Positions 35,981 to 64,000 of a stretch of DNA of 64,000 nucleotides are shown piece by piece (positions within the stretch are counted from its first letter, which is position 1; every line of letters begins with the position of its first letter). A program made the position numbers and the translations under genes. This DNA comes from Candidatus Pacebacteria bacterium CG_4_9_14_0_2_um_filter_40_15 (lineage in GTDB: Bacteria > Patescibacteriota > Microgenomatia > UBA1400 > PJMF01). The DNA lies in contig PFRS01000001.1 in NCBI GenBank assembly GCA_002788675.1, positions 234,706-298,705 of the forward strand. Reading direction: 5' to 3'. Under the pieces are notes generated by a model. That model was not told where the DNA came from, did no database searches, and worked only from the letters and a program-made list of their open reading frames with translations.

Positions 35981-36265
35981 GTTTCTTCTAACTATTCTAA
36001 TATATATATCTTGTAGTTGTAGTAGTAGGTGATTTTAGATTCGTGCATAACCTCTATTTTAGATCTGGTAGCCATCTGTGAATTGCGTGTGGATTTCAGT
36101 CAAGGGCAATTGTGAATAACTTTTCTGTAAAAACGTTGAAAATTGGGAAAACTTTTCCAAAGTTATTCACATGGTACCATTTTGTTAACAACTATTCACG
36201 CAGTATCCACTTGCTTTTCCACTAAGTTTTCCACATCCGTGGATAAGTTTGTTTATGTCAAAACT
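35981..36265. promoter_or_regulatory. Candidate oriC segment: DnaA-box cluster plus AT-rich unwinding-like tract in dnaA-dnaN spacer
   Basis: At least 8 DnaA-box-like 9-mers (7-8 of 9 matches to TTATCCACA): gtggataag, tgtggattt, tgtgaataa, ttattcaca, ttttccaca, agtatccac, tgtgaattg, tattcacgc. Plus a taatatatatatc tract. Confidence 0.5.
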
Positions 36266-38039: not shown

Positions 38040-40034
38040 TTATTTCTCAGGCGGAGCGTAATCATCTATCGAATAGAGATTTTGCGATTTTCGCTCAGTT
38101 GTGTCCGTTTGCATCTTTTGCTGAAGCTTTTGTTGAGCAGCAGGCTGATTGGGTGTTTGTGCTTGAGGTGGATGTACGTTATCGGCCGCAGCAACTTTTG
38201 CTGCTTGTTGTCGTTTATATATTTCTTCAGGGTTTGTGGTAATGAGTTGATGTTCTTCATCAGAGGCAACAACGCGCAATGCTACATGGTTTTGACCTGC
38301 AAAGAAAATACCTTCACCCACATCGGCCGTGACGAGAAGCTGTCGCTCTCCTTGTGATAGGTAGAATGTTTCAGCTAAGACGGGGATTGAAGCAGTTGAC
38401 TGCTTCATTAAGAATTGAATCGAAGCATTTGTAACAATTGCTTTTCCGTAATCGTTATGGATAAAGTCTTCAACGTCCTGAGTAATAGTCGTGATGCCTA
38501 AGTAGTATTTGCGAGCGCGTTTCACCATAGAGTGAATAAATGAAGCTGAATCTGGATGTTTCATAAAGTACCAGGCCTCATCAACAACGAGAATGCGTTT
38601 TTTGAGATCTTTTTTCACACGAGTCCAGATAAAGTCCAAAATCATATACATGGCAATTGGACGCATTTCTTCTTCCATTTCTTTAACAGAGAAGACAGTC
38701 AACTGATTGGTAATGTTTATGTTTGATTTTTGATCAAAGATACCTCTAAAAGATCCAGTAATGAATTTTTCAAGGCGGGCAGCGATATCATTGGCATCAT
38801 TATTTTCCATACCAATAAGTGCTTTGTAGACGTCCTCCATGAGTGGTGGCTCGTTTGTTTGAGTAGCCGGATCCGGGGTGATACCCTTTGCTTTATAGGC
38901 TGCAACAAGTGCTCTATCAAGCAAGGCTTCTTGCTGAGCAGACATTACTCCCAACATAACTTTAAGGAGCCCATGGAGAGATATAATTTTTTGGCCGAGT
39001 TCGTTTTCACCTTCTTCATACAGATTGGAAAGATCGAATGGATTAATTTTAGATTCAGAACTAAACGTGAAGTTAATGTATTGCCCTTCAACAGCTACTG
39101 CCAGATCTTCATATTCGTGTTCCGGATCAAGTACAATCACTTCTGCACCAAACATAAGTTGTCTGAGAATTTCGAGTTTAACGGTATATGATTTTCCAGC
39201 ACCAGATTTTGCGAAGATGACCATGTTGGCATTTTCCATTTTGAAGCGGTCAAAGATGATCAATGATTCATTATGCTCGTTAATGCCATACATGATTCCG
39301 GTTTCCATGGTGAGTTCACTTGATGTGAAGGGAAAGGTTGTTGCAAGAGATGTGGTATCCATGTTTCGAGTAACTTGGAGCTTGTCCACACCCATTGGGA
39401 GCGTCGACTTAAAACCATCGTCCATTTGAAGCGTGGCTTTTTTAGAAACAATTAAGAGAGAACCCAACGTAGACTGGATAGCTTTAGTAACTCTATCGAG
39501 TTCATCTTTATCTTTTGCCTGAATAGTTACGTACAAACCAAATTGAAAGAATCTTTCAGAACCTTTTGCCAATTCTTCACGAATGTAGCGAGCGTCCTCA
39601 AGTTTAACTTCAGTATTAATGTTTGAGATTTTACCGGCACGAAGGTCTGATTGGATTTCAGCTTCCATTTCAGTAATTTTTCTTTTGAGGTTGTCAAGAA
39701 TTTCACCTGAATCGACAGGATACACAAACATTGAAACATTTATCTGATGAGGAAAGTTAATAAGTGGTGAAAGCCAGTTAGCTGGAACGGATCGGGGATA
39801 CCCCGCCACAAACAGTGTCCGGGTAAAGGTCTCATTAATTTTTTGAAAAGTGAAGTCAACTTCAATGGCTTCAGGAGCAATAATGTCTTGAATAGTGACT
39901 AAGCCTCGAGAGAACTCTTGCAGTTTTTCGAGTTCGCGCTTTTGTTTTTCAAGCTCTTTTGCTTCAGGAGTAGCTTCTGCTGGAGCAGCAGTTTTTTTCT
40001 TTCCAAATGGTAGTAGTGAGCTTAAGTCGGGCAT
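38040..40034 (-). CDS. VirB4/TrbE/CagE-family T4SS ATPase
   Basis: Walker A AKSGAGKSYTVK; Walker B ILVVDEAWYFM; ITTITQDVEDF; size and order of motifs typical of VirB4. Confidence 0.8.
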   Translation of the reverse strand: MPDLSSLLPFGKKKTAAPAEATPEAKELEKQKRELEKLQEFSRGLVTIQDIIAPEAIEVDFTFQKINETFTRTLFVAGYPRSVPANWLSPLINFPHQINVSMFVYPVDSGEILDNLKRKITEMEAEIQSDLRAGKISNINTEVKLEDARYIREELAKGSERFFQFGLYVTIQAKDKDELDRVTKAIQSTLGSLLIVSKKATLQMDDGFKSTLPMGVDKLQVTRNMDTTSLATTFPFTSSELTMETGIMYGINEHNESLIIFDRFKMENANMVIFAKSGAGKSYTVKLEILRQLMFGAEVIVLDPEHEYEDLAVAVEGQYINFTFSSESKINPFDLSNLYEEGENELGQKIISLHGLLKVMLGVMSAQQEALLDRALVAAYKAKGITPDPATQTNEPPLMEDVYKALIGMENNDANDIAARLEKFITGSFRGIFDQKSNINITNQLTVFSVKEMEEEMRPIAMYMILDFIWTRVKKDLKKRILVVDEAWYFMKHPDSASFIHSMVKRARKYYLGITTITQDVEDFIHNDYGKAIVTNASIQFLMKQSTASIPVLAETFYLSQGERQLLVTADVGEGIFFAGQNHVALRVVASDEEHQLITTNPEEIYKRQQAAKVAAADNVHPPQAQTPNQPAAQQKLQQKMQTDTTERKSQNLYSIDDYAPPEK

Positions 40035-40048
40035 TAGGTTCTATCTTA

Positions 40049-41599
40049 CTAGATTTCTGGGAGAGGAGGAAGGTCTGCTCCAGATTTTTGGTCGTTAGTT
40101 GGTGTTGCTGCTTGAACAGGTTCCGTTGTAGTGGGTATCTCAAAAATTGGTTCGATTGGTGATCCCAGTGAAGCTGCTTTATCTGGACTGGTTGTGTTCA
40201 TAACAGCACCGGCATCAGGAACAACAGCACTTATTGGTGAAGGTGCAGCTTGTTGCATATTGGGTAGTGTGGGTTTTGGTAGATCAGATGAACCAGTTGT
40301 GGAAGCAAGCGTTGGCCCTACAACCGCAGGTTTTGGTGTTGAAGGAGAACTCTTGATTGGAGATTGAGGAACAGCGACAGGTATTTCAGAAACAGTAGGT
40401 TCAGCCTCTTCAATAGTTGCTGTTTCAGTTGGAGTTGTTGTTTGTGATGGAACAGTTGTGTCTGTTGGTTTTTCAATAGCATTAGTTGGTTCTGGTTGAA
40501 TTGGTTCTGTTGAAGCAGTGGGTTCAGCTAGAGTAACAGCTACTGGCTCGGGTGATGCTAGGGGGTCTGGTGTCGCCGGTGCAGGACTTTCAGTTGGCTG
40601 GACAGCAACTTCAGGTTGTGTTTGGGCATCGTCTACAGGAGTAGGTGTTGCTGGCATTTGAGTTGGCGTATAGCCTTGAGTTGTTGCCGTTTGAGCTGGA
40701 AAAGAAGTGCTTTCTTGAGGAAGCGTTATTTCAGAAGGAAGTGTTACTGGGAAATCGGGTGATAGCTGGGCAGGAATACTTGCAGGTTCAGGAACGGGTG
40801 TTGGAAGAGCTCCTGGGAGAGTAGCTTCTTGTTCTTGAATAGCTGTAGCTGCCGCTGTGGCAACAGGAACAGGCTGATTCATGGTTGGGTTTTGAGCGTC
40901 GTTCATCGTGGCTCCTTCAACTCCAGCTGTGACCATTGGAGTGGTGTAATTACTAGTGTCAGAAATTTGCTGCCCCTCGGCCGCTTCTGGGTTATAGCTT
41001 ACATAGAAAAATTGAATGATCTCTTGAGTTGCTAGTTGTCTAGCAAAAAGTCCAATTCTTCCAAACTGGGCAAGTAAGTGATCTCGTTTTGGTTCAAGTA
41101 AATTGCGAGCCTTTTCAATTACAGCAGTGCGTTGCTCGGGGTTAATAGCTGAGGTATTTGACTGACCAGGCATGATACTCTGAGCAGGTAAAATTCCCAG
41201 CTCGATAGGCGCTGCTGAAAGTGCCACATAGAATTTTTTATCAAGAACATTTCTTTCTCTAATTAAATTACCGACAAACTCTCGATAGCGACGGATTCGC
41301 TGTTGCTGTGTTCGAGATGTTGATTGATCTTCTTGGTCTTTGAGAATTTGAAGATAGCTAGTTACGTCTTTTGTTTGTGAATGGATAATAATCTGAATTG
41401 GATAGTTAAGAGAATTGAGTAATCCTGCATAAGAATACATGATGCTGTCTTGTTCTTCTTCAGCAAGCAAACCGAAGTTCATTGCATCAACTTGAATAAT
41501 AAGAGAACAGGTACCATCCTTGAGAATTACCATGTTATTAGTAATATCGAAAATATCAAGAAATTTTTGAGTGGTTGAGTGTAAAATATTTTCAGTCAT
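40049..41599 (-). CDS. Hypothetical T4SS-operon protein: about 240-aa N-terminal domain plus 270-aa Pro/Thr/Ala-rich tail
   Basis: No TM; the tail is PTxxP/TTPTE-type low complexity; 14 nt upstream of virB4-like. Confidence 0.4.
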   Translation of the reverse strand: MTENILHSTTQKFLDIFDITNNMVILKDGTCSLIIQVDAMNFGLLAEEEQDSIMYSYAGLLNSLNYPIQIIIHSQTKDVTSYLQILKDQEDQSTSRTQQQRIRRYREFVGNLIRERNVLDKKFYVALSAAPIELGILPAQSIMPGQSNTSAINPEQRTAVIEKARNLLEPKRDHLLAQFGRIGLFARQLATQEIIQFFYVSYNPEAAEGQQISDTSNYTTPMVTAGVEGATMNDAQNPTMNQPVPVATAAATAIQEQEATLPGALPTPVPEPASIPAQLSPDFPVTLPSEITLPQESTSFPAQTATTQGYTPTQMPATPTPVDDAQTQPEVAVQPTESPAPATPDPLASPEPVAVTLAEPTASTEPIQPEPTNAIEKPTDTTVPSQTTTPTETATIEEAEPTVSEIPVAVPQSPIKSSPSTPKPAVVGPTLASTTGSSDLPKPTLPNMQQAAPSPISAVVPDAGAVMNTTSPDKAASLGSPIEPIFEIPTTTEPVQAATPTNDQKSGADLPPLPEI

Positions 41600-41638: not shown

Positions 41639-42832
41639 TCAACTCAAACTTCGAACTTCAATTGGTTGTACCAAGTCTCCGGTTAATTGAATACTCATTG
41701 GTTCAAAAGAGAAGCCATCTTTGTCGACTGTTATGGTGTAATTCCCGTTTGCTAACGGCGTGGTCACAAAGAATTGACCGAGCGCATTTGTTTTAACAGC
41801 TCTGGCAACTGTGCCATCTTGTTGCAAAATTTCGATTATGGCATTAACAATGAGCTCATTATTTGGAGAAAGCACCATTCCAACGAGTTTATTTGGTTCA
41901 CTTGGAGATTCTGGGAAAGGTAGATTTGTGTTGAATTCAGCCTGGTCAGCCATCGTTTGATCATTTTTTGTGCCGTATGCTTCATTACCCATAAAGGTCA
42001 TTGAATCTTCAGCTGGTGTAGAAGTAGTGTCTGTTTCAGCCTCCACAGCTTGTTTGTTTGGATCAACAACAGCAATGAGTTGCGTTTCGGGAATGGCGAT
42101 TTCTTGAGCTACATCTTTGGCATCTTGTTGTTGTTTTGCAAGGACATTGCGTTGCGTGTACATATCAGTTAGGGCTGAGTCTGAGCTGGGAACTGCTCCA
42201 ACAGCATGAGTAGCATTTTGCTGAGGTAGTGCTTGTCCTTCAGCTGAGTACACAACATTTTCTTGGTGTAATGGTCGTAAGTTACGCACGCGCACTCCAA
42301 GTTTGGGCTTGGTGATTCTTCTTGATTTAGCTGTAGTTGGATCTGACTTAACGCTTGAAAAAGTACCCAGAATTGCATTCATTCGATCGATTTCATCTGA
42401 ATCAAATGAGTAAGGGTCTTCAACATTGGGAACAGATGTTAAGTATTCACGGATACGTTCTTTTTTAACTGGGCCTAGATCAACGTCCATCTCGGTGCGA
42501 GGACTAGACATATTTGGTGTAAAACTAAAAACTTCCGGAACATGAGCCTCTCGTTTCCAAAAGAATTGAGTTGGTTTATACATAACTCGAATAAAAGTGA
42601 GAATCCAGTGATCAAGTGGCCGTTCTTCAATGGGTAAAAATGCGATTAGTCCACCTGAAACCCCGGAAAAGAGCATAAGGGGATATTTAATAGCCGCGGG
42701 AAGATTTGTAGAGTAAAAAAGAGCAGCAAGACCTACACCCAGAGCAATTTCAACAAATTGCTTCAGAGTCATGCTTCCAATAATATGGAATTTATAACCG
42801 GTGATGTCTTGAGGAATTGGATGTTCTCTCAT
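41639..42832 (-). CDS. PrgI/VirB3-like two-TM N-terminal module fused to a large C-terminal extension with carboxypeptidase-regulatory-like beta-sandwich
   Basis: HPIPQDITGYKFHIIGSMTLKQFVEIALGVGLAALFY plus a second TM resembles PrgI-family (Gram-positive VirB3 analogue) openers; C-terminus NGNYTITVDKDGFSFEPMSIQLTG is CarboxypepD_reg-like. Confidence 0.45.
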   Translation of the reverse strand: MREHPIPQDITGYKFHIIGSMTLKQFVEIALGVGLAALFYSTNLPAAIKYPLMLFSGVSGGLIAFLPIEERPLDHWILTFIRVMYKPTQFFWKREAHVPEVFSFTPNMSSPRTEMDVDLGPVKKERIREYLTSVPNVEDPYSFDSDEIDRMNAILGTFSSVKSDPTTAKSRRITKPKLGVRVRNLRPLHQENVVYSAEGQALPQQNATHAVGAVPSSDSALTDMYTQRNVLAKQQQDAKDVAQEIAIPETQLIAVVDPNKQAVEAETDTTSTPAEDSMTFMGNEAYGTKNDQTMADQAEFNTNLPFPESPSEPNKLVGMVLSPNNELIVNAIIEILQQDGTVARAVKTNALGQFFVTTPLANGNYTITVDKDGFSFEPMSIQLTGDLVQPIEVRSLS

Positions 42833-42932: not shown

Positions 42933-43565
42933 TTAGCGAGGAAAAGCCTCTGGCTGAGTTGCTTCTGTGCTTAATTGACGCCCCCAGTTGAGCATAAAGG
43001 TTTCTGTGTCGGTTGGTTCAAAATGCCAAGTTTGATTAATAACTTTATTTGAGATGTTGGCAACAATTACTAAGCCTTCATCTAAAAATACGTGTGCTTT
43101 AACATTTTCATTCACTTGAGGTGCGAATAATTCAAAGTCGGGCTCACCATAGAGAGTGATGTAGTTTGAAAGTGTATTGTTTTCATCGAACTTTGCTGGA
43201 ATCTGAATAAATTCGACAATTCCTTCTTTATTTACGAGTATCTCATTATGATAGGCTGCAAAATGTTCAGAGGAATAGGTAATATGTTGTTTTTCAGCTG
43301 GTAGATTCTCAACTTCGAGAGGTTTTCCTAACTCTTCGAGCAGTTTTGGAGTCAGTTTAAATCCAGGAGTTAGGCCTTGCCATGTGTTTTCTTGAACGGG
43401 AGGTTCTTCAATGGGAATAAACTGTTGAACTGCTGATGCGATTACCAGCAACACTGCCAAGACAGCTAAAAAGATGAAAATAATTTTTGTATATTTATTT
43501 TTTTTTGGTTGCTTTGATTGCTCGTACGCTTGATTCTGGTATTTGTGGGCATTTTGTTGTTGCAT
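42933..43565 (-). CDS. Membrane-anchored hypothetical protein (translationally coupled, TAATG overlap)
   Basis: ATG at 43565 overlaps the TAA of the upstream giant gene; TM IIFIFLAVLAVLLVIASAV; 210 aa. Confidence 0.4.
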   Translation of the reverse strand: MQQQNAHKYQNQAYEQSKQPKKNKYTKIIFIFLAVLAVLLVIASAVQQFIPIEEPPVQENTWQGLTPGFKLTPKLLEELGKPLEVENLPAEKQHITYSSEHFAAYHNEILVNKEGIVEFIQIPAKFDENNTLSNYITLYGEPDFELFAPQVNENVKAHVFLDEGLVIVANISNKVINQTWHFEPTDTETFMLNWGRQLSTEATQPEAFPR

Positions 43566-53650: not shown

Positions 53651-55429
53651 TTAACTACCTGCTCTATCTTCATTTGAATTTGCTCCGCCAGCTGGTACTG
53701 CACCTGTTGAGCTTGTCTCAGCACCTCTATTACTTGGAGCCTGAACTCCACCTCTACCAGACAAGCCAGCATTTCGTAATGCCATATCATTAAGTACACG
53801 TTTTGCAATTTGGCCTGATTTACTTTCATTTCTTTCAAGTCTTCTTTGGGCTTGTCCAATTGACTCACCAACTAGGAATTGACCAGCTTCTTGTTTAGCT
53901 GCGTTGTAGGTAGATCTTATAAGTGGTTTAGCAACTTTTATACCAGTAGGAACAGCTGCACCAATTGCTGCGCCTCTCCCCGCACCTTTCCAGAAGCTAC
54001 CACCTTTACTCTTAGCTCTTACACCACCAATTGCTGCTCCAGCAGCACTTGATCCTGCTGATGCACCTAGGAAGGCACCACCCTTCATGATATTTTTAGC
54101 TCCGACGCCCTTATATCCTTCCCATCCTTTTTTAGCTCTATCCGTAGCCCAACCAGCAACCTTAGTTCCAAAGCCTTCTTTAGCGCCGACTTTTTCTTTT
54201 ATTTCTTTCACAATTTCAGGCATGGCCAAAATAAGTGCCAGCCCCATTAAAGATGAAATTGCTCCTGCTTGTCCACGACCAAGTAAGAAAGGAGGCATAA
54301 AGCCGCCACTTGTAGCGTTACCTAAGTCAGTAAATTGGTTGTAGAGAATAACTATAAAAAGAACTGTTGGGAATGCCGCTAAGTTTCCTGCGACATTGCG
54401 TAGCCAAGGTACGAAGGCATTATTACCTGGAATGGCACCCATCATGAGTGTAATTGGCGAGATAACAGTTGCAATAACCACGTTTGCGTAACTCTTAAGG
54501 AGTTCAAAGAAAAGTTTAAAAGTACCAAATATAACGGCGACGGTCAAAATTAAGGTGAGCGTCATGCCTCCAACAAATCCAAACGCAGTAGTCAGTCCAT
54601 TGTCGGCACTGACTAGGTTTGAGAGCATATTAGTAATGAGGTCAACATTCTGGTTAAATGATCCAGCAACGTTTCCAAACAAAAGTCCTCCAATTTGGAG
54701 AATATTAAAGTCGATTACATTAGCATCAGCCAGGCGTGTATCAAAGATACCAATCATTAGGAACATAAGCAGATACATTAAATCAATCATGAATCCAGCA
54801 ATAGCATACGAAAAGGTAACAAAGAGCAGCGACACAATTATACTTGGGATAGCTTGTTGTGCGGTTACGTCTGCACCATTCACTTTATTCCGGAACATAA
54901 TCATAAAACCAATAATCATGAATACAAACACAAAGAATAAGTAGGCCATATTTCGGAATGTTTTCCAGAGAGAAAGAATTGGATCAAGAGCAGCAAAGCC
55001 AAGTCCTTGAGCATACGCTGGAGTAGCAATGTGTGCGCTCTTCATAACGTCGGCAACATAGGTTCCTGTGCTTGCTGGAGGGTTTGCATACATCTGGCCG
55101 ATTAAGTAGACGAAGCCGCTTGAAACCATGTTTGGTTGTGGGACACTCGAACCAGGTCCGGTTCCGGTTCCACCAGCAGATGGAGGAGTACTTTGGGCTG
55201 GCGCATTTGCAATTTCAAATTGAATATATTTATAAACATGATGCACCAAACACTCCAAAGAAGGAGTGCCGCAGTCTTGGATAGCTTCATTATATGAATC
55301 TTTTAAGGCTGATTCGTAGGCAGGACTAAAAGGACTTTCGCCTTGAGCTTGCACGCTAGCAGGGTTCCCAAAACCAATAAGGAATACAAACGCAACTGCT
55401 AGTAGTGCGGTGAGGGCTCGTTTGAGCAT
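53651..55429 (-). CDS. TrbL/VirB6-like polytopic T4SS membrane protein with Gly/Ala/Ser-rich C-terminal tail
   Basis: Signal peptide (AVAFVFLIGFGNPASVQAQ); 6-7 TM helices in the central region; C-terminal about 200 aa of GAxxGA low complexity, typical of TrbL/VirB6 family members. Confidence 0.55.
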   Translation of the reverse strand: MLKRALTALLAVAFVFLIGFGNPASVQAQGESPFSPAYESALKDSYNEAIQDCGTPSLECLVHHVYKYIQFEIANAPAQSTPPSAGGTGTGPGSSVPQPNMVSSGFVYLIGQMYANPPASTGTYVADVMKSAHIATPAYAQGLGFAALDPILSLWKTFRNMAYLFFVFVFMIIGFMIMFRNKVNGADVTAQQAIPSIIVSLLFVTFSYAIAGFMIDLMYLLMFLMIGIFDTRLADANVIDFNILQIGGLLFGNVAGSFNQNVDLITNMLSNLVSADNGLTTAFGFVGGMTLTLILTVAVIFGTFKLFFELLKSYANVVIATVISPITLMMGAIPGNNAFVPWLRNVAGNLAAFPTVLFIVILYNQFTDLGNATSGGFMPPFLLGRGQAGAISSLMGLALILAMPEIVKEIKEKVGAKEGFGTKVAGWATDRAKKGWEGYKGVGAKNIMKGGAFLGASAGSSAAGAAIGGVRAKSKGGSFWKGAGRGAAIGAAVPTGIKVAKPLIRSTYNAAKQEAGQFLVGESIGQAQRRLERNESKSGQIAKRVLNDMALRNAGLSGRGGVQAPSNRGAETSSTGAVPAGGANSNEDRAGS

Positions 55430-55654
55430 ATATCACTATTATATCAAGAAATAAAGTAAATGACACATAAGAAAACTTTGCCTGGCTACTGCACTTATGA
55501 GAACCTCTTGAGGACGTAAGGAATACTTAAACGAATGTATACCTATTGTATAGTCCAAAGGGGGAGTGAGTTTTTGGCGAACGATTCTCATAAATGCAGT
55601 AGTCAGGACAACTTGTACCTGGAAAGATCTAGTTTGGTATAGTAGAATGCACGT

Positions 55655-56617
55655 ATGTTAGATCAGGCTCAGTTAAATACAATTCGATCCTATTTTGAAC
55701 AGGCCCATACAGTTACCATCGTTTGCGGGGTAGAACCCAGCATTGATGTTTTGGCCGCAGTTTCCGTTTTAAACCAAGCCCTTGCTTCTCAAGGAAAAGA
55801 AATTCAGTTAGTCAGTCCAAATACTATAGATTCTCCCGTTGTTTCAGGACTGGGTGGGGTAGAAGACTCAATTGGTAATCAGAACTTGGTTGTAAGTTTT
55901 CCCTATGATGAAACAGCTGTCGACAAGGTGAGTTATCATATTGGTGAAGATTCAGGTCAGTTTTTTCTTACCATAAAGCCAAAAAAAGGTCATGATCCTT
56001 TAGATTCTAATCAAGTTGAGTTCACCTATGCAGGAGTTGAAAGTGATTTGCTTGTACTGGTTGGTGTGACAAACTTCGATGAACTCAACCAGCTCTACGT
56101 TGGATATGAAGAGTTCTTTGAGAAAACTCCAAAAATTTCATTTACTGCTAATGGTTCTAAACTCGGAAACGTAAATATTTCATCTACAGGCTATTCGTCG
56201 ATTAGTGAATGCTTATTGGTTCTCTTAAACAGCTTACAAATCGATTTTTCAGTTGATAGTGCGACTAATTTGTTCTCGGCAATCGATGTGGAAACTGATT
56301 ACATGCGCTCACTAAAGGCAAGCGCTATTACTTTTGAAGCTGTGGCTCAACTCATGAGACTCGGTGCTCGCAGAGTAAGGCCTGAAAAACTACAAAAGCA
56401 AGATGTTGGGCAGAAAGTTTCGACTCGTCCTCTACAAGAAACAGAAATAGCAATTTCAAGTTCAAAATCACAAAAGAAACAAGATTCTCTAACTGAACAA
56501 CAAAATCAATCTAAGAAGATGAAACTGAAAAAACACAAACAGTCTCTTCCTAAAGATACAAGAAACCAACCTGGTGGTCTTAAGTATGATCCATCTAATG
56601 GTATTTCACGAAACTAA
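55655..56617 (+). CDS. DHH/NrnA-like fold protein with degenerate catalytic motifs
   Basis: Layout resembles NrnA-type DHH phosphoesterases (VTIVCGVEPSIDVLAAVSVLNQAL; LVLVGVTNFDEL), but the canonical DHH and GGGH motifs were not seen. Confidence 0.3.
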   Translation: MLDQAQLNTIRSYFEQAHTVTIVCGVEPSIDVLAAVSVLNQALASQGKEIQLVSPNTIDSPVVSGLGGVEDSIGNQNLVVSFPYDETAVDKVSYHIGEDSGQFFLTIKPKKGHDPLDSNQVEFTYAGVESDLLVLVGVTNFDELNQLYVGYEEFFEKTPKISFTANGSKLGNVNISSTGYSSISECLLVLLNSLQIDFSVDSATNLFSAIDVETDYMRSLKASAITFEAVAQLMRLGARRVRPEKLQKQDVGQKVSTRPLQETEIAISSSKSQKKQDSLTEQQNQSKKMKLKKHKQSLPKDTRNQPGGLKYDPSNGISRN

Positions 56618-56672
56618 CTAGTCACTCTTTTTTCACAAAATTGTATGTCGAGTAGTTGCATCCGCAACATGG

Positions 56673-59600
56673 TTATTTGATCTCACAAGTAGCAGTTCTC
56701 CATGGTGCCCAATTGCCCCATGCTTTTCTGAGATCGACCATAGCACGAATATTATTATCAGCCTTGATTTTTTCTTGCTCAGCAGTATCTTGTTCAACGG
56801 GAGTTGCTCCTGGAGGTAAATGTGAGTTGATGCGGGGTTGTGCAAATGAACCAATGGCAACTTTGGAGAGAGCACACTCATTAAGTCGTTCTTGGTCAAC
56901 AATGGTACAGGGCAGTTTGTAGGGATCATAGGTTGGGGCCGTATCGGGAATGCCACTACCATCTTTAAAAGCTCCTGGACAGCGAGGGAGCATATTTATC
57001 TGGAACAGACCAAGACTATAGTCAACAGATTTTCCTTCAAGACACCTATCATTGAACGCGTACGGACTGCTTCCGCTTTCTCTTTGACAAATAAGCGATG
57101 CTTTAAGTGCCTCGGTCGATGCATTTTCAAAACCAGCTTCAACAAAAAATGGTTCAAGATACTCAGGTGCACAGTACCCAGTGCCTAGTTTTTTAAGGCC
57201 ACAGGTCTCAAAATCTAAACTGCCATCAGCACCATCGTCGATATTTTTGAGGGCACCACCTGAACATTGCCCAAGTAAGAAGTGTTCCAAAGTTGGACAG
57301 GAGTCAATGTAACTGTGCGTGGCCGCTGTTGTAACTATAAACTCCTTGGTAACTGTATCTTTTGTTCCGACATAGACAGAGTTTAAAGAAAGTTGCACTT
57401 GTCGGAGCCAAAATCCAAGTTTTGCTCCGAGGAAACCAATACCTTTGTTGTCAGTTTCGATGGCAATTGAGACGTGTTCATTACAGACTTTAGGAATTGG
57501 TGAGGCTAACGGATCGTCTGGATCAATTGTTGTACCACAGTCCTTATCTGGATCAGGGAAATCAAATGATGCTGTGCCTCCAGCAACACCCATCAGGGCT
57601 CCTTCAATAGGGAAGCCATCTAGGATGCGCCCGCTTTGAGCTATCTGGTCCTTTTGGATGGAAGTGAAGAATGTGTTCATCATTACATTTTCAATTTCTT
57701 CGAGTTCAAAACCCATAGGGTAGACGAGGTAGTAGTCTGCAGTTGTTTTGCTCTCAGCTGGTGACCAAGTATCTGGACCGATTGTCCAGATGGTTTTAAT
57801 TTTTTCATACCAGGGATCAGCTGTTTTTGCTTTTTGTGGATCCATGTAGTTGTCATCGACAACATGGGTTCGATCGGCGTATTGACCAGAACCAAATAAA
57901 TTGAGTAGTAGTGTATTGCCCCACTCATTTAAGTACACTTTTCCATAGGGATCTTTAGGATCTCCTAGCCCTGCATAGTCATTTATTTGTACTACTGGTT
58001 CAGTTTCCTTGGTGTCACAGCCATAGGCCGCTCCGTTTACAATGTCGACAACTGCTTTACCGAGTTCATTCTGACAGGCTGGCGTTCCAACTCCATCTGG
58101 ATAGGATCCTTCATAACAGTAAATTTTGCTGCCTTCATTTTGAGATACAGCTGCTTCTGCTTGCAGTTGTATCTGACGGCGTCTTGCTGGACGATCAACG
58201 TCTTCGAGTTCTCGTATTTGATCACGTCTTAAAAGTATATTTCGAGTTAAATATGATGGATCATTCCAGTAGACACTACCAGAATCATCACCGCCACCTT
58301 TATTTGTAGCAATATCTGGAATTTTAAAGCCAATTACGAGTACCTCGTTTCGGGGCGCTCCCTTTTCAGTTTTACCTGTGAAGAAATTGAAGATTTTTCC
58401 AGCAAATTTGCCGCTTTTTTCTGGCTGTTTCATGTTGAGTGAGATAACCAAGAAGGCTAACCGATATGAGCGATTAATTTCCAGTGGCACATTTTGAAGA
58501 TCTTGTTTGAATTCAACAATATCTGGTGTTTGCTCAGTTTCTGGTGAGTAGAGACGTCTGCATTCTGCACTAATGCCTCCATCTCGATATGTCGGCATGA
58601 GTTCATGCATATCACCACGAACAGCATCTATAATCTTTCCAGTTCCTGGAACTTTTTGGGCAAGAAGGGTACATTCACCAGGATTAATGAGTTTTTCACA
58701 CATTAATTCAGTTGCTAAGAGCACTCTTGCAGATTGCACACAACGTTGTTGTTGACTAAGAAGAGAGTTTATTGGGGCTGAGTTAATTTCAGAGTAGCTA
58801 GGATCTTGGGTGTATACGTCTTTAAATCCAAAGTATTCCTCGAGAGAGCTCATAAGGTATTTAGTTCCTTCTGTGTCTCTCCAGATAGGTATTGTGGCAT
58901 TTGTCATGTCCCCCGATGCGACTGAATCAACAGCTATGTTAACCACAGGATAGGCTCCGGGATTTGATTTGTGAAGTTCAAGGTAGCGGGCAATAAGACC
59001 TGAAGTGTTGTATTTTGGTTTAATTTCAATATTCTCAGCAGCACAGTAGGCTTCATATCCGGAACTGGTTAGATCTTTTCTAATTTTATCAACGTCTCTC
59101 TCACCAGTGAGCATTCCTGAAATTGGTTGAAGATAGAACTGGTCTTGGTTTATGTTGTATTCAGGAAAGTCGCTTAAGTCGTAGCCGCCACTTCCACTGC
59201 CAGCCGTGATTGTGGAACAGCTTGTATCAACTTTTGTACCACCCCAGGTGAAGAGTTCACCCTCGACGTACACGAGCCACTCCCCTTCGCTTTGTAATTC
59301 TGCACAGACATTTCGAACAAGTGGCGTAATTTGCGCTGCGTTCATGCTGCCGGCTTTACTTGAAATAAATTCAAGAACTTTATTCAGATCTGTATCTGGA
59401 GGATCGTCACCACCCGGTGAAAGGGAAAACTCTGTAATATAAAGTTGTGAGCCGCCGGTACCTTGCACACCAACACTTTGTGTATCAGTTGAACCAGGAT
59501 CGCAGTCTTTACTGGTGCCACCGATACATCCATAGGAGTTTGCAGTTCTAATTTTTGCAGCTGAATAGGCACCGCCTAGACCAGACGTATCTAAAAAGAG

Positions 59601-60137
59601 CTGTGCTTTATATGCTGGGTCTCCCATGTACCAGTCAAGTGCCGATGGAGCTATATTTCCTAATCCTTTAACAGAATTATAGTTTGAAGCATAGCGTAAC
59701 CAGTCGGTACAACCAACATTATCGGAACTCCCATTATTGACTTCATTTCCGTAGGCAATGATGACATCATCACCAAAAGCTGCCTTAACTCTGTTGACCA
59801 TGGCAATCGCATCATCTGAAGCAACGGTACACGAATAGTTAATACGGACAATAGGGAAGAGCCCATTGTTTTTTGCGGCTTCAGCAAGATTATTGAGTGT
59901 ACCTTGATCTAGTCCCATGTCAGCCATAATGGTGACGGGAAAACCTGGCCGGTTACCGATAACGCCATTCATGACACTTATTTGAGTTCCAGGATCACCT
60001 GCACCAAGATGTGTGCCAATAGCAGCCTGTGCTCTAGCAGGCACAAGAAGGAAGAGTGTGAATAAAAGAAGACTGGAAAGTAATTTTTTGAGTGATCTCA
60101 CAGGCCTTATTATACCGTTAATTACGCTATTGAACAA
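56673..60137 (-). CDS. Giant (1154 aa) secreted protein with C-terminal VirB1/SLT-like lytic transglycosylase motif
   Basis: Signal peptide LLLFTLFLLVPARAQA. C-terminal CQRESGSSPYAFN...SLGLFQINM matches the SLT catalytic Glu-Ser and GLMQ(I/V) motifs. The N-terminal 950 aa is of unknown fold. Confidence 0.55.
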   Translation of the reverse strand: MFNSVINGIIRPVRSLKKLLSSLLLFTLFLLVPARAQAAIGTHLGAGDPGTQISVMNGVIGNRPGFPVTIMADMGLDQGTLNNLAEAAKNNGLFPIVRINYSCTVASDDAIAMVNRVKAAFGDDVIIAYGNEVNNGSSDNVGCTDWLRYASNYNSVKGLGNIAPSALDWYMGDPAYKAQLFLDTSGLGGAYSAAKIRTANSYGCIGGTSKDCDPGSTDTQSVGVQGTGGSQLYITEFSLSPGGDDPPDTDLNKVLEFISSKAGSMNAAQITPLVRNVCAELQSEGEWLVYVEGELFTWGGTKVDTSCSTITAGSGSGGYDLSDFPEYNINQDQFYLQPISGMLTGERDVDKIRKDLTSSGYEAYCAAENIEIKPKYNTSGLIARYLELHKSNPGAYPVVNIAVDSVASGDMTNATIPIWRDTEGTKYLMSSLEEYFGFKDVYTQDPSYSEINSAPINSLLSQQQRCVQSARVLLATELMCEKLINPGECTLLAQKVPGTGKIIDAVRGDMHELMPTYRDGGISAECRRLYSPETEQTPDIVEFKQDLQNVPLEINRSYRLAFLVISLNMKQPEKSGKFAGKIFNFFTGKTEKGAPRNEVLVIGFKIPDIATNKGGGDDSGSVYWNDPSYLTRNILLRRDQIRELEDVDRPARRRQIQLQAEAAVSQNEGSKIYCYEGSYPDGVGTPACQNELGKAVVDIVNGAAYGCDTKETEPVVQINDYAGLGDPKDPYGKVYLNEWGNTLLLNLFGSGQYADRTHVVDDNYMDPQKAKTADPWYEKIKTIWTIGPDTWSPAESKTTADYYLVYPMGFELEEIENVMMNTFFTSIQKDQIAQSGRILDGFPIEGALMGVAGGTASFDFPDPDKDCGTTIDPDDPLASPIPKVCNEHVSIAIETDNKGIGFLGAKLGFWLRQVQLSLNSVYVGTKDTVTKEFIVTTAATHSYIDSCPTLEHFLLGQCSGGALKNIDDGADGSLDFETCGLKKLGTGYCAPEYLEPFFVEAGFENASTEALKASLICQRESGSSPYAFNDRCLEGKSVDYSLGLFQINMLPRCPGAFKDGSGIPDTAPTYDPYKLPCTIVDQERLNECALSKVAIGSFAQPRINSHLPPGATPVEQDTAEQEKIKADNNIRAMVDLRKAWGNWAPWRTATCEIK

Positions 60138-60173
60138 TTGCGTTTGCCTGGTACCTAAATGGTAGAAAGGTAT

Positions 60174-60608
60174 TTATAAACCTGAATCAGAAGATGGAAT
60201 TCTGAACTGTGTGATGAGACTAATTCCGGTGAAAGAAGCAATCAAGTTAAGGATAATAAATGCACTCAGGGCTACCACCATACCAATAACAGCATAAGTC
60301 ATTGAACCTTTAGCAGATTGGAGTTTTCCAGTGTCTCCTCCAGAAAGCATCCAAGTGATTGCTCCAACGACAAACATTACAAATCCAGCGAGTCCTATGA
60401 TTGTAATAATTACTGTAAAAACATTTGCAATTAAGCACTCAAGACCTTGTAGTGTAGCTACATCCTGTTGACCTTCAGCTGAACCAACACAGACGCCGCT
60501 CCAGGCACGAGTTTGTGCTTGTGCAGGAGTAGCAGCCAAAAAATATACAGCTAGCATTGTAGCGGAGACATTTAGTTGTCGAATGATTTTTTTTATTGCT
60601 GGTTTCAT
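60174..60608 (-). CDS. VirB2/TrbC-like two-helix mini-protein (candidate T4SS pilin), paralog 1
   Basis: Signal peptide (AATPAQAQT); helix 1; loop WMLSGGDTGKLQSAKGSM; helix 2. Confidence 0.5.
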   Translation of the reverse strand: MKPAIKKIIRQLNVSATMLAVYFLAATPAQAQTRAWSGVCVGSAEGQQDVATLQGLECLIANVFTVIITIIGLAGFVMFVVGAITWMLSGGDTGKLQSAKGSMTYAVIGMVVALSAFIILNLIASFTGISLITQFRIPSSDSGL

Positions 60609-60655
60609 AGTAAAACTCTGTAGTTTTTATGTATGGTTACAGTATAGCAAACCTA

Positions 60656-61198
60656 CTAAGATAATGTTTTGGTGTTTTCAAGGACTTCTTGTAATGACTC
60701 AAATCCAAGAAAGTTCAAACCTAAAGTAAGAATAGCAAAACTTGAAGCTAAAATAATCAAGCCAATTATTGCTGCTATCAGACGTTGTCGTGCAGAATCA
60801 ACTTTGCCTTTATCTCCACCAGATGTGATCCAATAAAAGCCAGCGAGGATAAGTTGAAGAAAGACTAATAATGCTCCAAGAAGCATTACTAAACTTAAAA
60901 TCGCGTTAAAAAGAGTACCTACATTCGTTGCAAATCCTGTTGGAATGGTAATCCGAACATCTTTAAGAAGGTCATGTTTTATTTGGGCAGAAGTAGTACT
61001 GATTTTTTGAGCAGAGTTGGTCGCCGTTGTTGTTAAGTAGAGCGTTTCCCCGTCACGGTGTGTGGTAACGTCGTTACCTGTACCAGCAGCAAGAACAGCT
61101 CTGGGTTGGCAGAAGAAAAAAACAGTCATGAGTAAGAGTATAAAAAGTAATGTTTTTTTCATAACTAGTATTATAGTATCTATATCAAAATATATCAA
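60656..61198 (-). CDS. VirB2/TrbC-like mini-protein, paralog 2
   Basis: Signal peptide; loop YWITSGGDKGKVDSARQRLIAAIIGLIIL between two hydrophobic helices. Confidence 0.5.
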   Translation of the reverse strand: MIYFDIDTIILVMKKTLLFILLLMTVFFFCQPRAVLAAGTGNDVTTHRDGETLYLTTTATNSAQKISTTSAQIKHDLLKDVRITIPTGFATNVGTLFNAILSLVMLLGALLVFLQLILAGFYWITSGGDKGKVDSARQRLIAAIIGLIILASSFAILTLGLNFLGFESLQEVLENTKTLS

Positions 61199-61242
61199 AC
61201 ACGCTTGGCGTGTTTTTTAGCTTAAAGAAGCTAACGGCTGTA

Positions 61243-61272
61243 CCAAAAGCGCCAGGCAATTTGCCTGGCGCT
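61243..61272 (-). terminator. Intrinsic terminator after paralog 3 (same stem sequence as the 3484 terminator)
   Basis: aagcgccaggc-aattt-gcctggcgctt; on minus strand followed by TTTTGG. A second hairpin, aacacgc-ttgg-gcgtgtt plus T6, lies at 61218-61243. Confidence 0.5.
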
Positions 61273-61292
61273 TTCTAGTTTCTATTTTTAGA

Positions 61293-61700
61293 TTAGTTAC
61301 TAATTGATTTAACGTTACTGAATGCATCTCCAAGGTTTTCGAAGCCGATGAAGTTAAGAGCAATCAAGAGAATTGCGTATGATGCAGCGAGAACGATAAG
61401 TCCAAGAACAGCTGCAGTAATTTTGTTACGAGCAGATTCGGTCTTGCCTTTGTCTCCACCAGAAGTAATCCATTCGATGCCACCCCAGATGAGGTACATG
61501 AATACTAAAAGTGCTGCGAGAACCATGACGAATGAAAGCACACCATTGATAAGTCCACCAATGCTGGTTGCAAATCCTGGTCCTGGAGTAATTTCTTCTC
61601 CAGTATCAATACCTTGGGCAAGTACTGGTGAAACAGTAGCCAAGTATGCTGTTCCTGTTGCTACGGCTGTAGCGAACGATTTTTTGAGTGAGTCTGTCAT
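61293..61700 (-). CDS. VirB2/TrbC-like mini-protein, paralog 3 (terminator-flanked, candidate major subunit)
   Basis: Signal peptide (VSPVLAQG); loop EWITSGGDKGKTESARNKITAAVLGLIVL; followed by tandem terminator hairpins. Confidence 0.5.
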   Translation of the reverse strand: MTDSLKKSFATAVATGTAYLATVSPVLAQGIDTGEEITPGPGFATSIGGLINGVLSFVMVLAALLVFMYLIWGGIEWITSGGDKGKTESARNKITAAVLGLIVLAASYAILLIALNFIGFENLGDAFSNVKSISN

Positions 61701-61790
61701 GTGTCTCCTTATTTTTTTTACGGTTACAAACTTATATGTAATTATACCTATGTTCCAGACTAATAGTCAAGCATGGTTATCGAGGCGTCT

Positions 61791-62366
61791 TTAGCACTTA
61801 CTAAAGTCGTACCCTGAAATCTGATACTGAGCGCCATCTTGACAGAAGCATGGATCATAGTGGTTATAACTTAGGTGACTATCTGAGCCAAAGCATTGAA
61901 CCATTGCGATTCCTTGAGAACAATATCCAGCAGAACCACCAGCACTTACGGTTTGTTCCGTTACGGTGCAAGAAGCTTGGCCACCACCACCTCCAGCTCC
62001 ACCACCACCATTTGCAGTAGGTGATCCTAAAAAGGTAAACACTTGAATTCCTAAGAATTGTTGCACAATCATAAAGAGGGCAGTTACAGCTGAAAGAACA
62101 ATTATACCTGTGACTGCACCGGTAATTCTCTGGCGAGCTTTTTCAAGCTTGCTTTTGTCCCCTGCAGATGTGATCCATTCGATGCCACCCCAAATGAGGT
62201 AAAAGAAGACCAGTAGAGCAGCAATAAGCATGATGAAAGACATGATGCTTCCTACGAGTGGGCCAAAACCTGAAGCATGATTTGCTGGATCTAAAGAAGC
62301 TGTTCCTGGGACTGCATTGTCAACAGCTTTTTGTGCAAAATCGAGTTGTACTTGTGCGAGTTTCAT
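61791..62366 (-). CDS. VirB2/TrbC-like mini-protein, paralog 4 with Gly-rich/Cys C-terminal extension
   Basis: Loop EWITSAGDKSKLEKARQRITGAVTGIIVL; C-terminus GGGGAGGGGGQASC followed by a Cys-containing tail. Confidence 0.5.
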   Translation of the reverse strand: MKLAQVQLDFAQKAVDNAVPGTASLDPANHASGFGPLVGSIMSFIMLIAALLVFFYLIWGGIEWITSAGDKSKLEKARQRITGAVTGIIVLSAVTALFMIVQQFLGIQVFTFLGSPTANGGGGAGGGGGQASCTVTEQTVSAGGSAGYCSQGIAMVQCFGSDSHLSYNHYDPCFCQDGAQYQISGYDFSKC

Positions 62367-62386
62367 ATGTTCTTTCCAAGTGTGAT

Positions 62387-62854
62387 TTAGTGTCCTGCTC
62401 CTGGCCAGCCACCATCTGGTGCGCCGGTGCTATTTGGTGTTGGGAACGAGAGATTCAAGATTGAGAAGCTTTCACCAAAGAGCGCGGTACTTATGTAGCC
62501 AAGAATAACGAAACTTGAAACAAGGATGAGTAAACCAACAACAGCATGCATCATTCTGAGGCGGGCTTTCTCTAGTTTGCCTGAATCGCCACCTGCTGTA
62601 ATCCACTCAATAGAACCCCAAATAAAGTAGAAAAGAACGAGTAGACCACCAATATTTATGGCTGTTTCCCAGAGAGAAACCATGTAGCCGACAAAAATTG
62701 AGCCATCAGTGGCAGTTTCTGATGATTCTTGTGTTCCTCCTAAATCAGGAGTAAGGACAGGGTTGTTAATTGAGGCAAGAGCTTTTGTTGGTGAAAATGC
62801 AAACAGTGATACTGTCAGTACTAGAACGAAAAGGTAGATTAATTTCTTTTTCAT
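62387..62854 (-). CDS. VirB2/TrbC-like mini-protein, paralog 5
   Basis: Signal peptide (PTKALAS); loop EWITAGGDSGKLEKARLRMMHAVVGLLIL. Confidence 0.5.
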   Translation of the reverse strand: MKKKLIYLFVLVLTVSLFAFSPTKALASINNPVLTPDLGGTQESSETATDGSIFVGYMVSLWETAINIGGLLVLFYFIWGSIEWITAGGDSGKLEKARLRMMHAVVGLLILVSSFVILGYISTALFGESFSILNLSFPTPNSTGAPDGGWPGAGH

Positions 62855-62858
62855 AGTG

Positions 62859-63227
62859 TTATGGTGCCGGTGCTAAATCTATTAACTTTGATGCTGGTTC
62901 AAGAAGATTGAAGCCGATGATTGAGCCAATAAGTCCAATTATTCCATATGCTGCGACAACAATAACAAGACCAAGTACTCCGTGGAGCATGCGCTCACGA
63001 GCAGTTTGCAATTTTCCACTGTCACCACCACTCGTTACCCAAGAGAGTGCTGCAATAAGGAAATAGACTATAAAGAAGATAGATGCAAAAACAGTTAACA
63101 CACCAATGGAATTAGAAATAAACAACTCTAAATTTGATAGCGCACCTTCATTTGTTTCGATGCCTTCAGTAAAGGGAGCGTCTTGAGTGTTGAAGCCTCC
63201 TCCAAATTGTGCGATGAGTGTTAACAT
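62859..63227 (-). CDS. VirB2/TrbC-like mini-protein, paralog 6
   Basis: Loop SWVTSGGDSGKLQTARERMLHGVLGLVIVV; 4-nt gap to the next gene. Confidence 0.5.
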   Translation of the reverse strand: MLTLIAQFGGGFNTQDAPFTEGIETNEGALSNLELFISNSIGVLTVFASIFFIVYFLIAALSWVTSGGDSGKLQTARERMLHGVLGLVIVVAAYGIIGLIGSIIGFNLLEPASKLIDLAPAP

Positions 63228-63285
63228 AGTTCTATTATATCCTATTTGTATTTTTTTTGTACTCTATTTCTTCAAGAATGGTTTA

Positions 63286-63885
63286 CTATTCTGGAAGTGC
63301 TCCGCCAAGTGCTGGATTTAGCACAGCAGCAGAACTGCCATAGAAAATGACTCCAACAATTGCGGCAATTAAGTAGAACGAAGCAATTATGGCTAAGCCA
63401 ACAAGTCCCCATGTGATTTTATCTTTAACTTTTTCGTGTGCACTTGGGTTTCCAGCAGAGGTAACATACGTAAATCCTGCAAGAACAAAGTTAAACATAA
63501 CTATGATGCCGCCAATAACGGAAGCTAAGTTTATGATATTTGAAGCAAACTTAAAGAGGCCAATTTCACCTCCAGCTTCATCATTGTATTCAGCGACTCC
63601 TTGAGGAGGTTCAACTTCACCGATAATAGCTGAGCCACAGGGAGATGGAGATAAAAAACAAATACTTGAGCTTATACATAGGCAGCTTTTGTTGTCGACA
63701 CATTGTCCTGTATAGTTGCAAGACTGAGCTTGCACTTTTGGCGGAGTAAAAAAGAAAGCAGCTGCAAAAAACAGCCCCAAAAAAATTGAAAAAAATGTAT
63801 GTGAAAGTTTTGAATGACGTACAGACATATTATGGTGTTCCTGGTCCAGTAATAGTCGGGTTGAGTAAGTATAAGGAATTTCCAA
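63286..63885 (-). CDS. VirB2/TrbC-like mini-protein, paralog 7 (Cys-rich N-terminal region)
   Basis: Probable true start at the ATG at 63828 (MSVRHSKLSHTFFSIFLGLFFAAAFFFTPPKVQAQ signal peptide); loop TYVTSAGNPSAHEKVKDKITWGLVGLAII. Confidence 0.45.
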   Translation of the reverse strand: MEIPYTYSTRLLLDQEHHNMSVRHSKLSHTFFSIFLGLFFAAAFFFTPPKVQAQSCNYTGQCVDNKSCLCISSSICFLSPSPCGSAIIGEVEPPQGVAEYNDEAGGEIGLFKFASNIINLASVIGGIIVMFNFVLAGFTYVTSAGNPSAHEKVKDKITWGLVGLAIIASFYLIAAIVGVIFYGSSAAVLNPALGGALPE

Positions 63886-64000
63886 AAAAGACAGTACCCA
63901 AGATACCCGCTACTGCATATACGGTTACAATTAAGATCATTCCTAGAATACTCATGGTTAATCGATCACGGACTTTTATGTGTGTCTGAGAATTTCCACT
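63836..64000 (-). CDS. C-terminal part of an eighth VirB2/TrbC-like paralog running off the window end
   Basis: Manual translation ...HIKVRDRLTMSILGMILIVTVYAVAGILGTVFFGNSLYLLNPTITGPGTP* matches the ARxR-helix-2 pattern of the paralogs. Confidence 0.4.

Follow-up and report, generated by a model that had tools for sequence, protein, structure and literature searches.

The far end of a 64,000-nucleotide stretch of Candidatus Pacebacteria bacterium CG_4_9_14_0_2_um_filter_40_15 (contig PFRS01000001.1; the whole stretch is called the window here) carries a tandem array of short, divergent minus-strand genes. This array is the VirB2-like pilin module, of Pfam family PF18895, of a Patescibacteria (Pacebacteria/Microgenomates-type) type IV secretion system (T4SS). 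It comprises nine paralogs, P1 to P9, and we consider it likely that these are one major pilin, P7, and eight conserved minor pilins of a chromosomal T4SS located near the replication origin.

The original prediction, made from the letters of the window, had described seven complete genes and a partial one, packed 4-100 nt apart and continuing past the window end, and all three points were borne out. Within 60174-63885 the listing of open reading frames (ORFs) contains seven minus-strand ORFs, 60174-60608, 60656-61198, 61293-61700, 61791-62366, 62387-62854, 62859-63227 and 63286-63885, of 122-199 amino acids (aa) before correction of starts and with gaps of 47, 94, 90, 20, 4 and 58 nt between consecutive ORFs. 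An eighth gene is cut by the window end; its 56 C-terminal aa are encoded by the final 171 bases. Two starts were revised: the most likely start of ORF 63286-63885 is ATG 63828, one base past the stop of the upstream gene, giving 180 aa, and that of ORF 60656-61198 is ATG 61162, giving 168 aa. Genes called on public contigs that match the window at 100% identity have the same lengths, and the 199-aa version of P3 was unmatched in an exact protein look-up because its TTG start is wrong. With P3 starting at 63828, the partial gene, P2, spans 63830-64000. An exact protein look-up with P7 led to four contigs from ENA and JGI metagenomes (L086-L089) that are identical to window positions 54000-64000 over 10001 of 10001 nt. 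Beyond the window end they carry exactly two more pilin genes, the rest of a 149-aa P2 and a 116-aa P1. The array therefore has nine genes, of which P3-P9 and the 3' end of P2 lie inside the window and P1 lies wholly outside. An exact 45-nt string from the window end had no match in genome or metagenome contig collections.

Multiple alignment of the paralogs shows the shared architecture that had been proposed, a common plan of helix, loop and helix with variable ends: a variable N-terminus, a hydrophobic helix, a W(I/V)TSGGDxGK..AR.R loop, a second hydrophobic helix and a variable tail. Each of the five loop strings quoted earlier occurs in the ORF translations or the alignment, and hydropathy gives two transmembrane-like segments in every paralog. 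Pairwise identity ranges from 18 to 62% in the 76-column core (mean 33%) and is 28% over the full alignment. PF18895 (T4SS_pilin, gathering score 26.6 bits) matches all seven complete genes with E values of 1e-9 to 5e-5; six pass the cut-off (28.6-38.5 bits), and P4 falls just under it (23.8 bits, E 4.6e-5). The loop motif is not a new signature but the core of an existing Pfam family. A hidden Markov model (HMM) of the core found the seven array ORFs and nothing else in the 64-kb window. At E≤0.01, PF18895 matches 26/26 members of a family alignment (A2), and TrbC/VirB2 (PF04956, gathering score 27.9 bits) matches 12/26, the best at 2.8e-8; CagC matches one member. P7 itself has sub-threshold matches to TrbC/VirB2 (20.5 bits, E 5.5e-4) and CagC. 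PF04956 matched none of the other window paralogs, and no holin, bacteriocin-immunity, PrgI or VirB3 family in Pfam or NCBIfam matched any paralog at E≤0.1. Together with VirB4, PrgI/VirB3-like and TrsD-like neighbours, these family matches support the earlier proposal that the genes encode T4SS pilins.

The loops of the paralogs carry 2-5 Lys or Arg residues, and the segments preceding helix 1 are acidic, with no Lys or Arg in five of the seven. By the positive-inside rule, this pattern predicts an N-out/loop-in/C-out orientation, which is the topology of VirB2-type pilins. Leaders judged by eye and hydropathy end in AxA or AQ in P3, P5, P7, P8 and P9; a Peptidase_S26/TraF gene was not seen among the ORFs scanned, which were not all of those present. 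In the AlphaFold2 model of P7, a leader helix and a disordered linker precede a confident helical hairpin (helix 47-79, a 4-residue loop and helix 84-118; predicted local distance difference test score 87-96). The modelled fold is compatible with that of VirB2 and does not prove it. Searches by fold were non-specific, the two-helix hairpin being a generic architecture, and Foldseek against the PDB gave no match at E<1. A sequence-profile search of the PDB returned no chain even at E≤10. An hhalign comparison with an unverified A. tumefaciens VirB2 sequence was in-register but non-significant (probability 3.7%) and was disregarded because of that input.

P7 (61293-61700, minus strand, 135 aa) is the candidate major pilin and forms a monocistronic unit. 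The original prediction had singled it out as the highly expressed subunit on account of two hairpins that follow it, and this assignment is supported by a conserved terminator, by a promoter of its own with an AAGGAG Shine-Dalgarno sequence, and by the highest conservation in the array. The sigma-70-type promoter at 61741-61770 (minus strand) reads TTGACT-18-TATAAT, an 11/12 match; the mRNA leader is 40 nt long, and the Shine-Dalgarno sequence lies 7 nt before the ATG. Both promoter and Shine-Dalgarno elements are kept in the related loci L001, L003 and L008. The intrinsic terminator at 61246-61274 (minus strand; z = -5.5) consists of a GC-rich hairpin followed by UUUU, with a stem of 13 pairs in the consensus scan and 10 G/C-rich pairs in the fold. 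If a terminator is taken to be a hairpin of -10 kcal/mol or lower ahead of a U-run, one follows the P7 orthologs at about 90% of 86 loci, whereas only 4% of the 518 remaining pilin genes have one (Mann-Whitney p = 7e-43). The hairpin is retained between loci while its stem sequences differ, and the median gap downstream of P7 is 84 nt, compared with 12 nt after the other pilin genes. No other orthogroup is as conserved as P7 (median identity 59%, against 40-50% for the others), and P7 has the lowest synonymous divergence (dS) from L001, 0.49 versus 1.3-3.2, as expected for a highly expressed gene. Among Patescibacteria genes of unknown function, T4SS pilins rank with the most strongly expressed in metatranscriptomes (PMC10936435). 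The second hairpin, an 8-bp stem at 61197-61215 (minus strand), abuts the -35 element of the P8 promoter and is not clearly conserved in L001.

The array keeps its composition and order among relatives. A search with P7 gave 920 homologues at E≤1e-3, and P7 also served to find 80 species-level genomes. PF18895 was present in all 120 homologues listed, and those with names come from metagenome-assembled genomes (MAGs) of Pacebacteria, Paceibacterota or Patescibacteria; 98 blocks of a public collection list the exact P7 protein, JGI 3300025142 and ENA ERZ27293367 among them. The core HMM identified tandem pilin genes in almost every locus of the 80 genomes. Among the 63 arrays complete within their locus the median is seven genes; 60 have 5-10 genes and three have 2-3. 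With each ORF assigned to its best reference paralog, the order is nearly everywhere P1-(P2/P3)-P4-P5-P6-P7-(P7-duplicate/P8)-P9. The same order across about 80 genomes means that the paralogs are old and that each has positional orthologs.

Selection on the paralogs was estimated by the Nei-Gojobori method between the window and L001, L003 and L008. Orthologs are 64-96% identical, and the ratio of nonsynonymous to synonymous divergence (dN/dS, or omega) is roughly 0.05-0.21 per gene. Pooled against L001, omega is 0.03 for the helix-loop-helix core, 0.11 for the mature exposed flanks and 0.41 for the leaders. The exposed parts therefore evolve faster than the core but remain under constraint, with omega nowhere near 1. 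The array had been thought to carry hypervariable exposed regions under diversifying selection; with positional orthologs in about 80 genomes and omega well below 1 at the resolution of gene and region averages, this is not supported, and alignment and dN/dS point instead to purifying selection. The related suggestion of a repertoire of alternative pilins likewise finds no support, every paralog having an ordered positional ortholog and a purifying dN/dS. The fast evolution of the leaders is as in cleaved peptides. Minor-pilin leaders are 17-69% identical with an omega of about 0.4, while the P7 leader (61613-61700; 29 residues, weakly hydrophobic) is 96% identical to that of L001 and 75-79% identical to those of L003 and L008; its sequence may matter beyond simple export.

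In the model that we consider likely, P7 would supply most of a filament or conduit and the other eight paralogs would act as minor subunits. The proteins would be inserted N-out/loop-in/C-out, as judged from the positive-inside rule and from solved VirB2/TraA pili. By analogy with the solved pili, the hairpins would then be extracted by a VirB4/VirB3/VirB6 platform and polymerise, which would place the basic loop along the lumen and turn the variable N- and C-termini outward. These outward parts would include the Cys-rich modules of P3 and P6, Gly-rich modules and the Thr-rich extension of P8. Expression signals and conservation suggest that P7, as its own transcription unit, would be the abundant subunit and form the bulk of the filament or conduit. 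P1-P6 and P8-P9 would be low-abundance minor pilins with fixed, non-redundant roles, for example in priming, at the tip, in adhesion or in a wall-spanning base. Such a division would resemble the major/minor logic of type IV pili and of the pseudopili of type II secretion systems (T2SS), and the subunits would not be interchangeable variants. From the literature, the filament or conduit may serve host-cell contact or exchange in an epibiotic lifestyle (PMC10633639, PMC12857230, PMC11665869).

Several observations weigh against this picture. No T4SS pilus has been observed in any Patescibacteria, and a 2025 FEMS review calls one an 'intriguing possibility' (PMC12857230). The division into major and minor subunits is drawn from expression signals and conservation rather than from protein abundance. 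Most ortholog pairs are saturated in dS, which makes the dN/dS values rough, and averages could hide a few positively selected sites. P7 lies below the TrbC/VirB2 gathering score (20.5 vs 27.9 bits), P4 and P6 have no obvious signal peptide by eye and hydropathy, and the VirB1-like and VirB6-like neighbours described below are candidates whose labels come from sub-threshold scores or topology.

One rival reading, close to that first suggested from the letters, takes such an array to be a repertoire of interchangeable major pilins under diversifying selection, serving antigenic variation, phage evasion or a wider host range. It is offered in PMC12102498 as speculation, by comparison with the virB2 paralogs of Bartonella and Anaplasma, and would be consistent with a core identity of only 18-62%, with exposed ends that differ strongly and with flanks that evolve about three times faster than the core (omega 0.11 vs 0.03). 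However, each paralog has a positional ortholog in the same order in about 80 species-level genomes, omega is well below 1 in all regions, and a strong promoter and terminator of its own belong to one paralog only, an asymmetry that is itself conserved. Redundant variants would also not be expected to be essential, as the pilin series is reported to be in Southlakia epibionticum. We regard a repertoire of this kind as distinctly improbable.

It is less easy to set aside that the VirB2-family subunits form a short, heteromeric, wall-spanning stalk, channel or pseudopilus, acting as a conduit for uptake or export with no extracellular pilus. Gram-positive-type T4SSs, of the mating-pair formation class FATA (MPF-FATA)-like kind, have no known pilus, none has been seen in Patescibacteria, and nine distinct conserved subunits fit an assembly of defined stoichiometry better than a homopolymer. 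On the other hand, a dedicated high-expression unit for one subunit suggests a many-copy polymer, T4SS pilin transcripts are abundant in metatranscriptomes, and the large Cys- and Gly-rich modules of P3 and P6 look surface-exposed. None of these three points is decisive, and a conduit of this type is plausible, though unlikely in our estimate. The genes could finally encode unrelated two-helix membrane peptides (holin-, bacteriocin-immunity- or VirB3-like) that lie near a T4SS by chance. The generic nature of the hairpin and the non-specific fold searches would allow for this, and the corresponding proteins of mycoplasma integrative and conjugative elements (ICEs) have been described as VirB3-like (PMC12857230). 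Against it, PF18895 is the top match for all, with TrbC/VirB2 matching 12/26 and CagC one; no holin, immunity, PrgI or VirB3 family matches any paralog; a separate PrgI/VirB3-like gene is present at 41639-42832; and synteny with the T4SS genes is strictly conserved. A chance neighbourhood is therefore highly improbable, and the holin or immunity-peptide reading was rejected for its lack of family support and the strict T4SS synteny.

The pilin genes in the window, all on the minus strand, differ in their details. P2 (63830..64000 in the window) is represented by its last 56 codons and stop, with the full gene on L086 and L088, and its ortholog in L001 scores 60 bits on the core HMM. P3 (63286..63828, 180 aa; PF18895 31.1 bits) has a signal-peptide-like leader and an N-terminal module with six Cys residues (SCNYTGQCVDNKSCLCISSSICFLSPSPC), whose positions are kept in L001 and L003. 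P4 (62859..63227, 122 aa) scores 23.8 bits with PF18895 and 111 bits with the core HMM, and its orthologs are 77-84% identical. P5 (62387..62854, 155 aa; PF18895 30.3 bits) has a signal peptide and a Pro/Gly-rich C-terminal tail. P6 (61791..62366, 191 aa; PF18895 28.6 bits) has a Gly-rich linker and a C-terminal six-Cys module, the Cys pattern of which is kept in the L001 and L003 orthologs. P7 scores 34.2 bits with PF18895. P8 (60656..61162, 168 aa; PF18895 30.6 bits) is its closest relative, with 62% core identity, and bears a Thr/Ser-rich N-terminal extension. P9 (60174..60608, 144 aa; PF18895 38.5 bits) has a long leader ending in AQAQ and two conserved Cys residues, and forms a distinct orthogroup in 76 loci.

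The P8 promoter-like site (61170..61198, minus strand; TTGATA-17-TATAAT, 11/12) has a -10 element that ends 7 nt before the ATG at 61162 and is followed by no Shine-Dalgarno sequence. P8 and P1 (the latter at L086 7030-7072) share this layout, with TATAAT ending 7-8 nt before the ATG and no Shine-Dalgarno sequence. The TATAAT-ATG layout of P8 is kept in L001 and L008, and the P1/P8 arrangement is kept in close relatives. The spacing suggests that the two minor-pilin operons starting with P1 and P8 may be expressed from leaderless mRNAs. On the identical contigs, the region beyond P1 holds a divergently oriented gene for an extracytoplasmic function (ECF) sigma factor and two small genes, then a NUDIX gene and genes of the mevalonate pathway. 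The sigma factor and small ORFs of 64 and 115 aa lie at L086 5901-7066, directly upstream of P1, and the same arrangement is found in L001 and L003. The two small ORFs are possibly an anti-sigma pair, and the sigma factor with these ORFs may regulate the pilin operon. Plus-strand ORFs opposite the array, such as 61348-61794, were rejected as antisense shadows of pilin genes, and Rfam and tRNA scans of the window gave no match.

A minus-strand cluster extends down to dnaA with the array at its distal end, and the synteny of the array with the T4SS genes is strictly conserved in the loci compared (L001, L003 and L086). Directly downstream of P9 is a gene for a large secreted protein (56673..60137, 1154 aa), a VirB1-like candidate with an N-terminal signal anchor and a C-terminal lysozyme-like SLT_3 match (PF18896) of 23.8 bits, below the cut-off of 27; the gene is syntenic in L001, L003 and L086. 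A polytopic membrane protein (53651..55429, 592 aa) with a signal peptide and about seven hydrophobic segments is a VirB6-like candidate by topology only, and Pfam and NCBIfam gave it no match. A PrgI/VirB3-like protein is encoded at 41639..42832 (PF12666, 33.5 bits against a cut-off of 27). The gene at 40049..41599 encodes a TrsD-like protein, with a sub-threshold match to NCBIfam TrsD NF041427 (22.1 vs 200 bits) and to the N-terminal part of mycoplasma VirB4 NF045975. The VirB4 ATPase (38040..40034) matches the TraG P-loop domain at 78 bits and CagE_TrbE_VirB at 24.5 bits, above the cut-off of 21. All five of these genes are on the minus strand, and dnaA (36266-37894) adjoins virB4, with dnaN at 34871-35980. 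About 20 kb and 11 large ORFs lie between virB4 and the array. Pfam and NCBIfam searches with the ORFs at 42933-43604, 43565-47308, 47371-49287, 49590-53372 and 55655-56617 gave no match; the last four are 1247, 638, 1260 and 320 aa long. The 1260-aa and 320-aa ORFs lie on the plus strand inside the T4SS cluster, are found at the same positions in L086-L089, and have counterparts of similar size there in L001 and L003.

A gene resembling a type IV coupling protein (T4CP) lies at 9585-12017 on the plus strand (810 aa; TrwB_AAD_bind 49.7 bits and TraG-D_C), 26 kb from virB4 and across the origin. The remainder of the window is housekeeping, with genes for Obg, Rho, a RadA-like protein, LeuRS, L25 and YidC; together with dnaA and dnaN this places the cluster on the chromosome, close to the origin. 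DnaA-box-like sites (TTATCCACA, with at most one mismatch) number 16 in the window, four of them clustered at 36111-36246, and the GC skew turns positive from about 35-37 kb, so that oriC is probably in the dnaA-dnaN spacer, 35981-36265. The T4SS genes at 38-64 kb are then probably transcribed towards the origin, head-on with replication, except for the two plus-strand ORFs, which is an unusual orientation for a long, highly expressed cluster.

Some loci showed variations on the arrangement. In about 15 (for example L009 1566-3625, L079 589-2923 and L038 348-3277), there is an additional gene pair 3-5 kb upstream, encoding a protein of 380-545 aa and usually one of about 100-275 aa (larger in a few). 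These score weakly on the pilin core HMM (19-56 bits) and could be larger proteins with a pilin-like membrane hairpin; the pair is absent from the lineage of the window. Single ORFs of 264-275 aa at L055 9088-9903, L059 4402-5229 and L073 8997-9791 reach 156-163 bits with the pilin HMM, roughly double the score of a normal pilin, occupy the P5/P6 position and look like two fused pilin domains. Many of the MAGs among L007-L085 are titled 'uncultured Pseudomonadales bacterium' while being clearly Patescibacteria by gene content and by isolate names (HK-STAS-PATE-16). Such mislabelled taxonomy could lead automated annotation astray.

In a PF18895 and PF04956 screen of 3,035 genomes of Patescibacteria, Quinonero-Coronel et al. 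(2025; PMC12102498) reported 441 arrays of 2-11 pilin genes with a mean identity of 25%, found especially in Microgenomatia and Saccharimonadia and often near virB4 and dnaA. The present array, with the same Pfam family, nine genes in tandem near virB4 and dnaA, 28% identity and homologues of Microgenomatia type, fits that description in every respect, and is ordinary for the lineage and already described (PMC12102498, PMC10633639, PMC12857230). The present data point away from the interpretation given there, antigenic variation or host range, and towards paralogs that are collinear and individually conserved, with one separately expressed major subunit. Three features seem to go beyond the published accounts: the constancy of the orthologous order, the promoter and terminator that P7 keeps for itself across loci, and the consistent sub-threshold link to NF045849 described below. 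For S. epibionticum ML1 (SEML1_0006-0019), Wang et al. (2023; PMC10633639) reported that the T4SS cluster contains a series of predicted pilins that is essential. Like the window, it places a Gram-positive-like T4SS beside the origin and encodes divergent but structurally similar VirB2-like pilins, and as there, no recognised relaxase was seen among the window ORFs scanned. That system belongs to Saccharimonadia, has six reported pilins rather than nine and was shown to be essential by transposon sequencing, whereas the present array is known from sequence alone; the T4CP-like gene in the window is a further difference.

A putative leader, two hydrophobic helices and a short basic loop, encoded with VirB4, a VirB3-like protein and a VirB6-like candidate, are shared with the diderm VirB2/TrbC/TraA pilins (PF04956). 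The present array differs in its monoderm host, MPF-FATA-like machine and nine paralogs; diderm loci typically encode a single pilin gene. A VirB5 tip protein is lacking here, as are signs of cyclisation or acetylation. The archaeal conjugative (Ced-type) pilins, such as that of Aeropyrum pernix (PDB 8dfu), are also among the closest known systems. Type IV pili and T2SS pseudopili are a functional analogy only, with one major and several conserved minor subunits encoded together, the major being highly expressed and the minors of low abundance; the fold and assembly machine are unrelated, and no prepilin peptidase motif is present.

The nearest NCBIfam relative of P3-P9 and of the L001 ortholog of P2 is NF045849, the mycoplasma ICE 'Mbov_0395 family pilin-like conjugal transfer protein', from an MPF-FATA-type system of a reduced-genome monoderm; P1 of L001 had no NF045849 match in NCBIfam. 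The matches span nearly the whole 80-position model with scores of 13.8-31.6 bits, all below the 40-bit cut-off, and the best is that of P7 (31.6 bits, E 1e-7). The array proteins thus appear related to this equivalog without being members of it, and the sub-threshold similarity hints that the pilin came with an MPF-FATA-like system. To our knowledge, no tandem array of the Mbov_0395-family gene is known in mycoplasma ICEs. The origin of the arrayed pilins was left open in PMC12102498.

The role of the T4SS in the epibiotic lifestyle has been described as completely unknown (PMC11665869). The system is essential in the one Patescibacteria species tested, in a group that is very large and uncultivated, and for a monoderm nothing about it is as unusual as its pilin arrays. 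The fixed order, the purifying selection and the private signals of P7 predict a single abundant subunit, the P7 orthologs, and the comparative results predict non-redundant minor subunits rather than a repertoire for variation. Characterised T4SS pili are homopolymers with a VirB5 tip, and we know of no T4SS pilus with a heteromeric major/minor architecture. A bolder possibility, somewhat short of even, is that the nine collinear, individually conserved paralogs build a heteromeric VirB2-type filament or conduit from P7 as the major pilin and as many as eight minor pilins dedicated to it. If so, such a structure would have evolved in a monoderm and converged on the division into major and minor subunits known from type IV pili, and the published idea of antigenic or host-range variation would not hold for this lineage. 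The link to NF045849 would then mean that the pilin came with an MPF-FATA-type machine and not from diderm systems.

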